Source of the DNA: Escherichia coli
Lineage (GTDB): Bacteria; Pseudomonadota; Gammaproteobacteria; Enterobacterales; Enterobacteriaceae
Strand: one strand, 5' to 3'
DNA: 64,000 nucleotides
Assembly: GCF_041886205.1 (NCBI RefSeq)
Contig: NZ_CP169029.1
Shown here one piece after another: positions 63,145-64,000 of the stretch. The stretch's first letter is position 1. The number at the start of each line of letters is the position of its first letter. Position numbers and translations under genes: made by a program. Below the pieces are notes generated by a model. That model had not been told where the DNA came from, did not search any database, and worked only from the letters and a program-made list of their open reading frames with translations.

Positions 63145-63242
63145 TTCTGTCTCCCGTTAAATTACGTTAAGCAGAAATGTAGGATATCCAACATGCAAAT
63201 GTCAAGAATCCTACATGGGCATGTGGTAGGATTGCCTACATG
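63145..63242. promoter_or_regulatory. OR-like operator/promoter region between cro-like and cI-like genes
   Basis: Three related dyad sites: atgtaggatatccaacatg (63177-63195), gtcaagaatcctacatg (63201-63217), atgtggtaggattgcctacatg (63221-63242). Confidence 0.65.
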
Positions 63243-63893
63243 ATGAACATGAGTGATCGTATTCGCCAAAGGCGAAAAGAACTGAACCTGACACAACAAG
63301 CACTGGCTGATTTGACTGGTGTGAACCGTGTCACGGTTACTGGATGGGAAAAGGACGACTACCAACCAAATGGAGCCAACCTTCAAGCCCTAGCCAACGC
63401 ACTTAAATGCGATCCTCTGTGGCTTGTTAGCGGAAAAGGCTCGCCTGAACCAAAGATAAATCTAAAACCTGAAATATTCGCAGTTAAAAAAGTCCCCCTA
63501 ATCTCGTGGGTTCAGGCGGGTTCATGGACAATGACGGAGCCTGGTGTCAGGAAAGAAGATGCTGAAGAGTGGGTTTATACTACCGCCCTTGTATCAGAAA
63601 TGGCATTTGCACTACGGGTCCGTGGTGATTCAATGACCAATCCCCTCGGCTCACCATCGATACCAGAAGGTTCTATCGTTATCGTAGAGCCAGATATTAT
63701 TGATACAGAGTGTATTAACGGAAAAATCGTTGTTGCCCATATCAATGGTGGGCAAGAAGCGACACTCAAAAAATTTGTTGAGGACTGGCCGAACAGGTAT
63801 CTCGTCCCACTAAATCCTAACTATAAAACTATTGAATGCGGTGAGAACTGCAGAATAGTTGGTCTTGTCAAACAAGTAATAATGGATTTTTGA
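63240..63893 (+). CDS. CI-like repressor (HTH plus S24 LexA-type autopeptidase domain)
   Basis: 217 aa; N-terminal HTH (LTQQALADLTGVNRVTVTGWE), C-terminal S24 with catalytic Ser in RVRGDSMTNP and Lys in TLKKF. Confidence 0.85.
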   Translation: MMNMSDRIRQRRKELNLTQQALADLTGVNRVTVTGWEKDDYQPNGANLQALANALKCDPLWLVSGKGSPEPKINLKPEIFAVKKVPLISWVQAGSWTMTEPGVRKEDAEEWVYTTALVSEMAFALRVRGDSMTNPLGSPSIPEGSIVIVEPDIIDTECINGKIVVAHINGGQEATLKKFVEDWPNRYLVPLNPNYKTIECGENCRIVGLVKQVIMDF

Positions 63894-63955
63894 CACATCT
63901 TCCTCACTATCGCAAAACCGGGGTATCCCCGGTTTTTTTATGAGCCTATCTTTTT

Positions 63956-64000
63956 ATGTAGGATAACCAACATAAACTCTTGACACTCACATGTTGGATA
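63956..64000. promoter_or_regulatory. OL/PL-like operator-promoter region (cut by window end)
   Basis: Operator-type sites atgtaggataaccaacata and catgttggata flanking a TTGACA hexamer (63980-63985). Confidence 0.5.

Follow-up and report, generated by a model that had tools for sequence, protein, structure and literature searches.

The last 1.1 kb of a 64,000-nucleotide stretch of an Escherichia coli genome (contig NZ_CP169029.1, assembly GCF_041886205.1; hereafter, the window) is a lambdoid immunity region, in reversed orientation relative to the lambda map. We found that five related 18-bp dyads flank its repressor gene, cI, and that they are very probably the right and left operators (OR and OL) of a lambdoid prophage with a switch of the P22/21 (immC) type. 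The switch itself is an ordinary one of a known kind and textbook biology; its recognition sequence is a new specificity. A few bases beside the operators vary at an unusually high rate, and these free bases are the one part that might surprise a specialist.

Five dyads and the early promoters

An earlier note on this DNA had described at least five related dyads around cI as an OR- and OL-like operator family. Reading of the sequence, a repeat finder, and 9-mer and matrix statistics all led to five sites, each of 18 bp, whose consensus is a perfect palindrome (ATGTAGGAT joined to ATCCTACAT). Three of them occupy the 95-bp gap between the divergently transcribed cro and cI, as the note had stated. 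At the window end, for which it had listed two or more, there are two and no more (OL2 and OL1, the latter cut by the window end), and the TTGACA hexamer that it had placed among them lies between the two. The sites are listed below with cro, cI, and the elements of the predicted right and left early promoters (PR and PL).

62947-63144, minus strand: cro, an open reading frame of 65 amino acids; Pfam P22_Cro (E 7.6e-22); PHROG 409, transcriptional regulator
63176-63181, minus strand: PR -10 hexamer TACATT, from the promoter scan; the last five bases of OR1 plus T
63177-63194: OR1, ATGTAGGATATCCAACAT; a perfect palindrome but for one mismatch; spans PR positions -25 to -8, approximately
63199-63216: OR2, ATGTCAAGAATCCTACAT; one perfect half-site, the other half containing the PR -35
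63200-63205, minus strand: PR -35 hexamer TTGACA, from the promoter scan; inside OR2
63224-63241: OR3, TGGTAGGATTGCCTACAT; ends in the AT with which the first cI ATG (63240) begins
63240-63893, plus strand: cI, 217 amino acids from the first ATG; Pfam HTH_3 and Peptidase_S24; PHROG 4
63914-63939, plus strand: intrinsic terminator of cI; 10-bp stem, UAU loop, U run; -17 kcal/mol, z -3.5
63956-63973: OL2, ATGTAGGATAACCAACAT; 5' of the PL -35 and downstream of the cI terminator
63980-63985, plus strand: PL -35 hexamer TTGACA, within a 23-nt inverted repeat common with PR; invariant in the 37 haplotypes described below
63991-64008: OL1, ATGTTGGATATCCTACAT; the first 10 of its 18 bases (63991-64000) inside the window

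The missing bases of OL1 were taken from phages Lys8385Vzw and SKA5 (99.6-99.9% identity across the overlap); completed in this way, OL1 reads as OR1 in exact reverse complement, with a T after it. The dyad centers read ATAT, ATAA, GAAT, or ATTG. All three occurrences of the exact 9-mer ATGTAGGAT in the 64 kb are in the immunity region, and 5 of the 15 matches to it with at most one mismatch fall within ~160 bp of intergenic DNA, where ~0.04 would be expected by chance (Poisson P ~1e-9, hand calculation). When a leave-one-out half-site matrix was used to score the dyads against 63,953 background positions, OR1, OL1, and OL2 outscored all of them (28.3 for OR1 against a background maximum of 15.4, and 24.2 for OL2 against 15.6). 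The score of OR2 (9.4) was equalled by one of the 63,953 positions, and that of OR3 was likewise reached by one only.

Neither the window nor the 3 kb past its end in phage Lys8385Vzw yielded a sixth operator site, and no third OL site was found between OL2 and OL1 (the place over the -35 that is equivalent to OR2), 5' of OL2, or downstream of PL. Away from the immunity region, the sequence most similar to an operator, ATGGAGAATACCCCACAT (window 42783-42800, four mismatches), lies at the 3' end of an open reading frame of the structural region; it is probably a chance match, as ~2 windows with at most five mismatches are expected.

The promoter hexamers are consensus matches in the sequence. 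On the minus strand, the scan placed PR as TTGACA, an 18-nt spacer, and TACATT (10 of 12 matches), with OR1 spanning the -10 and the spacer. The PL block is the same as that of PR: TTGACA, 5 nt, OL1, and then T, with the predicted -10 TACATT at the OL1 end and extending to ~64009, past the window end. OL2 lies 6 bp upstream of the PL -35. The overlap of the sites with the PR and PL hexamers, the families of CI and Cro, and the occurrence of the motif beside CI and Cro homologues all agree with the operator family that the earlier note had proposed.

The cI product matches lambda CI over its full length (PDB 3bdn, E 7e-25), and its N-terminal 65 residues match P22 C2 (PDB 1adr, 2r1j, and 3jxb; E ~4-6e-14). 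In the alignment with lambda CI, its QAG (Ala93-Gly94), GDS (Ser131), and Lys176 fall opposite A111-G112, S149, and K192, the lambda cleavage site and catalytic dyad.

A candidate -10 hexamer for the promoter of repressor maintenance (PRM), TACATG, is present at 63237-63242; a start near 63249 would put the OR2 center at -41.5, as in lambda. Within OR3, the half-site TAGGAT supplies AGGA at 63227-63230, 9 nt 5' of the first cI ATG. This AGGA could serve as a ribosome-binding site when transcription of cI begins further upstream, as from a promoter of repressor establishment (PRE); PRM transcripts of cI may instead be leaderless. We keep the placement of PRM and of a leaderless start conditional because the ATG spacing differs among relatives.

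Operators and repressors in related phages

Of 5426 complete E. coli genomes, 139 (~2.6%) carry the cassette at 99% identity or more; six phage records hold the region at 99.5% or more, and it was found in Stx2c phages. Scanning of IMG/VR for the exact OR1/OL1 18-mer gave 99 loci, 97 of which are cro-cI regions, while the other two are unrelated chance matches. Most of the loci carry the 18-mer as an inverted pair ~814 bp apart. Together with the three exact 9-mers, all located here, this is the outcome of the motif search across the genome and related phages that the earlier note had suggested, and it favors the operator family.

The CI proteins adjacent to these sites comprise 28 distinct sequences, with identities of 65-100% except for a single one at 49%. 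Every variant retains GVNRVT(V/L)TGWE, and the linker and the C-terminal domain diverge. The Asn46 of P22, organizer of the central minor groove, is conserved in the PNG motif of CI. In the groups with CI ~83% and ~75% identical to that of the window, diversity was 0.005-0.014 over 72 operator positions and 0.27-0.38 at cI third codon positions. Operators of diverged cassettes are 20-60 times less variable than third codon positions, and purifying selection acts on these sites. The OR3 18-mer is nearly invariant where CI is 75-100% identical, with rare single-base variants only, and the position of OR2 is conserved in all relatives.

In three IMG/VR loci (L075, L102, and L107), an A to T change at the equivalent of 63966 turns OL2 into ATGTAGGATATCCAACAT, which is identical to OR1 and, in inverted orientation, to OL1. 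The diverged relatives L029/L030 and L042 have an extra operator-like sequence ~30 nt 3' of the PL -10 (GGTAGGATATTACAAT; ATGTAGGAGAG), which is absent from the cassette in the window.

A tblastn search with CI found Yersinia YeP1-3 (64-66%), mEp390 (60.5%), and Klebsiella and Pantoea phages (~50%). The same layout of three plus two sites and the same promoter blocks are present in mEp390, YeP1-3, and Klebsiella ST101-KPC2phi6.3 (CI identity 51-66%), with OL dyads that bracket TTGAC(A/C). Phage mEp390 has an OR3 identical to that of the window and the same recognition helix, with the half-sites ATGTAAGAT and TAGTAGGAT. A literature search found no published operator data for mEp390, the YeP phages, or the Klebsiella phage, and a search on mEp390 operators returned nothing relevant. 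Within this common layout, an altered CI helix goes with an altered half-site:

This cassette: recognition helix GVNRVTVTGWE, half-site ATGTAGG
YeP1: recognition helix GVSRVTVTGWE, half-site ATGTCAG (ATGTCAGAT)
Klebsiella phage: recognition helix GVSRVSVTKWE, half-site ATGTAAC
P22: recognition helix GVSNVAISQWE, half-site ATTTAAG

This co-occurrence is strong correlative evidence that the 18-mers are functional targets of the CI helix-turn-helix. The earlier note had stated that the sites define the immunity specificity of the phage; the link between operator and helix and the conservation of the sites support this, and the step from there to immunity is taken by analogy with lambda and P22.

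The likeness to P22 and 21 is extensive. It includes 18-bp dyads with an A/T-rich center (ATAT), a CI that is homologous to C2 in its N-terminal domain (E 4e-14) and 44-46% identical to it along the entire protein, and a Cro of the Pfam family P22_Cro. As in P22, OR3 adjoins the repressor start codon, and PL is laid out as OL2, 6-7 bp, the -35, 4-5 bp, and OL1 with the -10 at its end. The three OR sites are spaced, start to start, by 22 and 25 bp here and by 23 and 25 bp in a P22-like phage, and OL2 and OL1 by 35 bp in both. The P22 operator has the consensus ATTTAAGATATCTTAAAT, with positions 2-7 and 12-17 contacted by the repressor and positions 8-11 uncontacted (PMC5175364, PMC4267663). In each half, the window operator departs from this consensus in having G in place of T3 and of A6, and its ATAT center is the same; the half-site is ATGTAGGAT here and ATTTAAGAT in P22. 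Specific binding by the P22 repressor is lost when position 3 is changed (PMC4267663). The recognition helices, NRVTVTG here and SNVAISQ in P22, differ at five of seven positions, which leads us to expect that the phage and P22 are heteroimmune. Thus, judged by its sequence, the switch appears to be of the P22/21 type with a specificity different from that of P22/21 (half-site ATTTAAG). Two further differences concern layout: the PR hexamers lie ~12 bp further downstream relative to the operators than in P22 (-35 in OR2, -10 at the OR1 end), and OL has two sites where P22 and 21 have three.

The hallmarks of a lambdoid switch are also found, namely, the gene arrangement, a repressor with helix-turn-helix and S24 domains, the overlap of operators with promoters, and a second cluster at PL. 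In common with lambda, cI and cro are divergent, OR is tripartite with the PR -35 overlapping OR2 and the -10 overlapping OR1, a second operator cluster lies at PL beyond cI, and the C-terminal domains of the two CI proteins are homologous, with Ala-Gly sites and Ser/Lys dyads that line up. The operators are nevertheless not those of lambda, whose sites are 17 bp long and unrelated in sequence; OL here has two sites and directly follows the cI terminator, 0.8 kb from OR, with no rexAB in between. The earlier note is therefore refined in two respects: the operators are of the P22/21 (18-bp) type, not of the lambda type, and OL has two sites, not three. A precedent for the latter is the Stx2 phage 933W, of a prophage family with Shiga-toxin phages among its members, which has three OR sites and only two OL sites (PMC8065619); its repressor and operator sequences differ, the CI of the window being only ~34-36% identical to that of VT2-Sakai/933W-type Stx2 phages. 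The K-12 prophage e14 (YmfK/CohE, YmfT/CroE) was suggested by the neighboring YmfL- and YmfM-like genes, which are common to both, but we rejected it as the same immunity: only the repressor C-terminal domain aligns (35%, residues 73-210), and the operators differ, the e14 gap having GTAC-type repeats.

Several observations weigh against the operator assignment. By sequence, OR2 and OR3 are weak, with five and four mismatches to the consensus, and their leave-one-out scores are comparable to those of the best background positions. Only five operators were found, whereas P22 has six. The PRM could not be placed with confidence, as the distance from OR3 to a conserved internal ATG is 6 nt in some relatives and 3 nt in others. 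The IMG/VR loci were picked by an exact OR1/OL1 match, so that conservation of one of OR1/OL1 is in part by construction, while that of OR2, OR3, and OL2 is unaffected. Last, operator strings of 12 and 13 bases matched no paper in a literature text search.

The weak sites raise the question of a simpler switch than the three-site one of lambda and P22, in which only OR1, OL1, and OL2 would function and OR2 and OR3 would be decayed or half-sites. The single good half-site of OR2, the four mismatches of OR3, and scores near the background maximum would fit this, as does the drift of the good half of OR2 in the groups with 75% and 66% CI identity. However, both sites stand at the P22 phasing and share in the very low operator diversity of the diverged groups; OR3, moreover, is nearly invariant across cassettes with CI 75-100% identical and identical in mEp390. 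Cooperative filling of weak sites is also usual in lambda and P22. We consider the simpler switch improbable.

A second possibility is that PR and PL resemble each other as copies of a duplicated early promoter (TTGACA-N5-...TACATT), the 18-mers being promoter sequence and not binding sites. Indeed, the 23-nt inverted repeat common to PR and PL includes the -35 and the start of the 18-mer, whose end makes the -10. Yet every 18-mer is itself a dyad, and OR3 and OL2 carry the motif without good promoter hexamers. In diverged cassettes, all 18 bp are conserved and not the hexamers alone, the promoter spacers vary freely, and the motif covaries with the CI recognition helix in relatives, which leaves a duplicated promoter very unlikely as the explanation. 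It is hardly more credible that the dyads are mainly bound by another regulator (host LexA, the CII-like protein, or Cro alone) with CI acting elsewhere: although ATGT...ACAT superficially resembles the LexA box CTGT-N8-ACAG, the essential C of CTG and G of CAG are absent and the arms are 10 bp apart instead of 8, the cro-cI gap has no other repeated dyad for CI, no cassette that keeps the operator has a changed CI recognition helix, and Cro, as a member of the P22_Cro family expected on the same DNA, belongs to the standard model and is no rival.

With the dyads taken as OR and OL, we infer CI binding, order of occupancy, cooperativity, PRM activation, and induction from the better-known switches. 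In a lysogen, CI dimers, which combine a P22 C2-like N-terminal helix-turn-helix with a lambda CI-like C-terminal S24 domain, would bind the 18-bp dyads, with direct readout of the seven outer bases in either half (ATGTAGG) and, as in P22, probably indirect readout of the ATAT at the center. CI on OR1 and OR2 would cover the PR -10 and -35 and thereby keep cro, the cII-like gene, and the replication genes off. Having a single good half-site, OR2 is probably filled cooperatively with OR1; OR3, which lies over the cI start and the likely PRM, probably serves negative autoregulation. On the other side of cI, the repressor on OL1, aided by OL2 just 5' of the -35, would occlude PL. Upon DNA damage, RecA-stimulated self-cleavage at Ala93-Gly94 (catalytic Ser131 and Lys176) would free the operators, and Cro made from PR would then occupy the same sites.

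A literature search found no published operator description of the present immunity type. The analysis gives its operators and early promoters, as predicted, at base resolution for ~2.6% of complete E. coli genomes and for Stx2c-converting phages. The pairs NRVTVTG/ATGTAGG, SRVTVTG/ATGTCAG, SRVSVTK/ATGTAAC, and SNVAISQ/ATTTAAG form a natural specificity series for P22-C2-like repressors, which could serve the study and engineering of helix-turn-helix recognition codes and of orthogonal repressor-operator pairs.

Hypervariable bases beside the operators

We compared 61 copies of the cassette (from IMG/VR, phages, and the window), which represent 37 haplotypes with an essentially identical CI protein. 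Nucleotide diversity (pi) among the 37 haplotypes was distributed as follows:

Operators: 0.007 (singletons only)
cI third codon positions: 0.0057
cI 3' non-coding region: 0.0017
OR inter-operator spacers (63195-63198 and 63217-63223): 0.17
PL spacer from the -35 to OL1 (63986-63990): 0.19

Thus, in cassettes that are otherwise at least 99% identical, the spacers are ~30 times as diverse as cI third codon positions. The variation is concentrated in three triplets, and the six OR positions are mostly three-allelic:

63195-63197: PR spacer between the -35 and OR1; three alleles per position among the 37 haplotypes
63217-63219: adjoining OR2, in the putative PRM -35 region
63987-63989: PL spacer between the -35 and OL1

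Within the PR and PL cores and the gap between OR2 and OR3, it is exactly these positions that neither an operator nor a promoter hexamer holds fixed. One single 1.1-kb background shows five spacer combinations, and combinations recur across backgrounds. The OR1-OR2 spacer allele of the window, GCAA, is a minority allele; GCCA is common.

The pattern was replicated in 15 metagenome contigs retrieved via an anchor within the cI coding sequence, in which spacer diversity was 0.16-0.22 versus 0.003; 63195 and 63196 were variable again, and 63197 was invariant. In one of the metagenome contigs (L117), the cassette is otherwise identical and has a 2-nt deletion in the PL spacer (equivalent of 63988-63989), which reduces the distance between the PL -35 and -10 from 18 to 16 nt. 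Spacer hypervariability was absent from 16 P22-immC cassettes of comparable identity (99.2-100%), and it is thus unsupported as a general property of such cassettes.

We considered several sources of the variant alleles. Recombination with diverged cassettes that share the operators was rejected, as the alleles are not those of the groups with 83%, 75%, and 66% CI identity, and so was gene conversion between PR and PL, which have no alleles in common. The variants are thus unlikely to have been imported by either route. No more than one allele, 63217 G>T, by which the OR2 flanks become complementary, can be put down to template switching at a quasi-palindrome.

Some variants at 63217-63219 bring the candidate PRM -35 hexamer (63216-63221) nearer to TTGACA, from TGGGCA to TTGGCA or TGGACA. 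Tentatively, the spacer bases may be under recurrent adaptive tuning of promoter strength or repressor cooperativity, which we regard as possible but doubtful; if true, such tuning would give strain-specific induction thresholds, Stx2c phages included. The alternative is a mutational hot spot caused by permanent repressor occupancy of the flanking operators. In either case, a literature search found this population-genetic signature nowhere described for phage switches. If the hypervariable bases alter the strength of PR, PL, or PRM, they could explain strain differences in spontaneous induction and toxin release.

Other features of the immunity region and its surroundings

cro is the first gene read from PR, with a ribosome-binding site, GGGAGA, 5 nt 5' of its ATG. 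On the other side, 16 nt separate the U run of the cI terminator from OL2. The upstream part of the region, on the minus strand, also carries a YmfM-like open reading frame and the following genes:

62335-62919, minus strand: open reading frame for a CII-like activator
60989-61990, minus strand: open reading frame for an O-like replication initiator

An Rfam scan of the immunity region found no RNA family. Within the O-like gene, 61558-61681 contains eight tandem repeats of 15 nt (or four of 30 nt), CAGATTTTGA(C/T)G(G/C)GT. These repeats, which give rise to an SDxSK repeat in the O-like protein, are probably origin iterons. In phage Lys8385Vzw (L001), which is 99.9% identical across the immunity region, a different module replaces the O-like gene (window ~61000-62000), and a mosaic boundary lies just past the cII-like gene. 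This module contains, at 2894-3092, a C4 antisense RNA and isrK (Rfam, 75 and 62 bits), features of an antirepressor control system of the P1/P7 type.

Beyond PL, L001 and L002, the two near-identical phages from which OL1 was completed, diverge from each other from locus position ~5207, that is, ~105 nt past the window end and ~190 nt 3' of the PL -10. The leader common to the two has a GC-rich, hairpin-like stretch (GCGCAGGCTGATGCGCG), and no obvious N-like gene was seen.

No tRNA genes were found anywhere in the window. Its positions 1 to ~33900 resemble E. coli chromosome and not prophage, and this chromosomal-looking half contains the small RNAs sraL (13615-13755) and naRNA4 (6306-6377).

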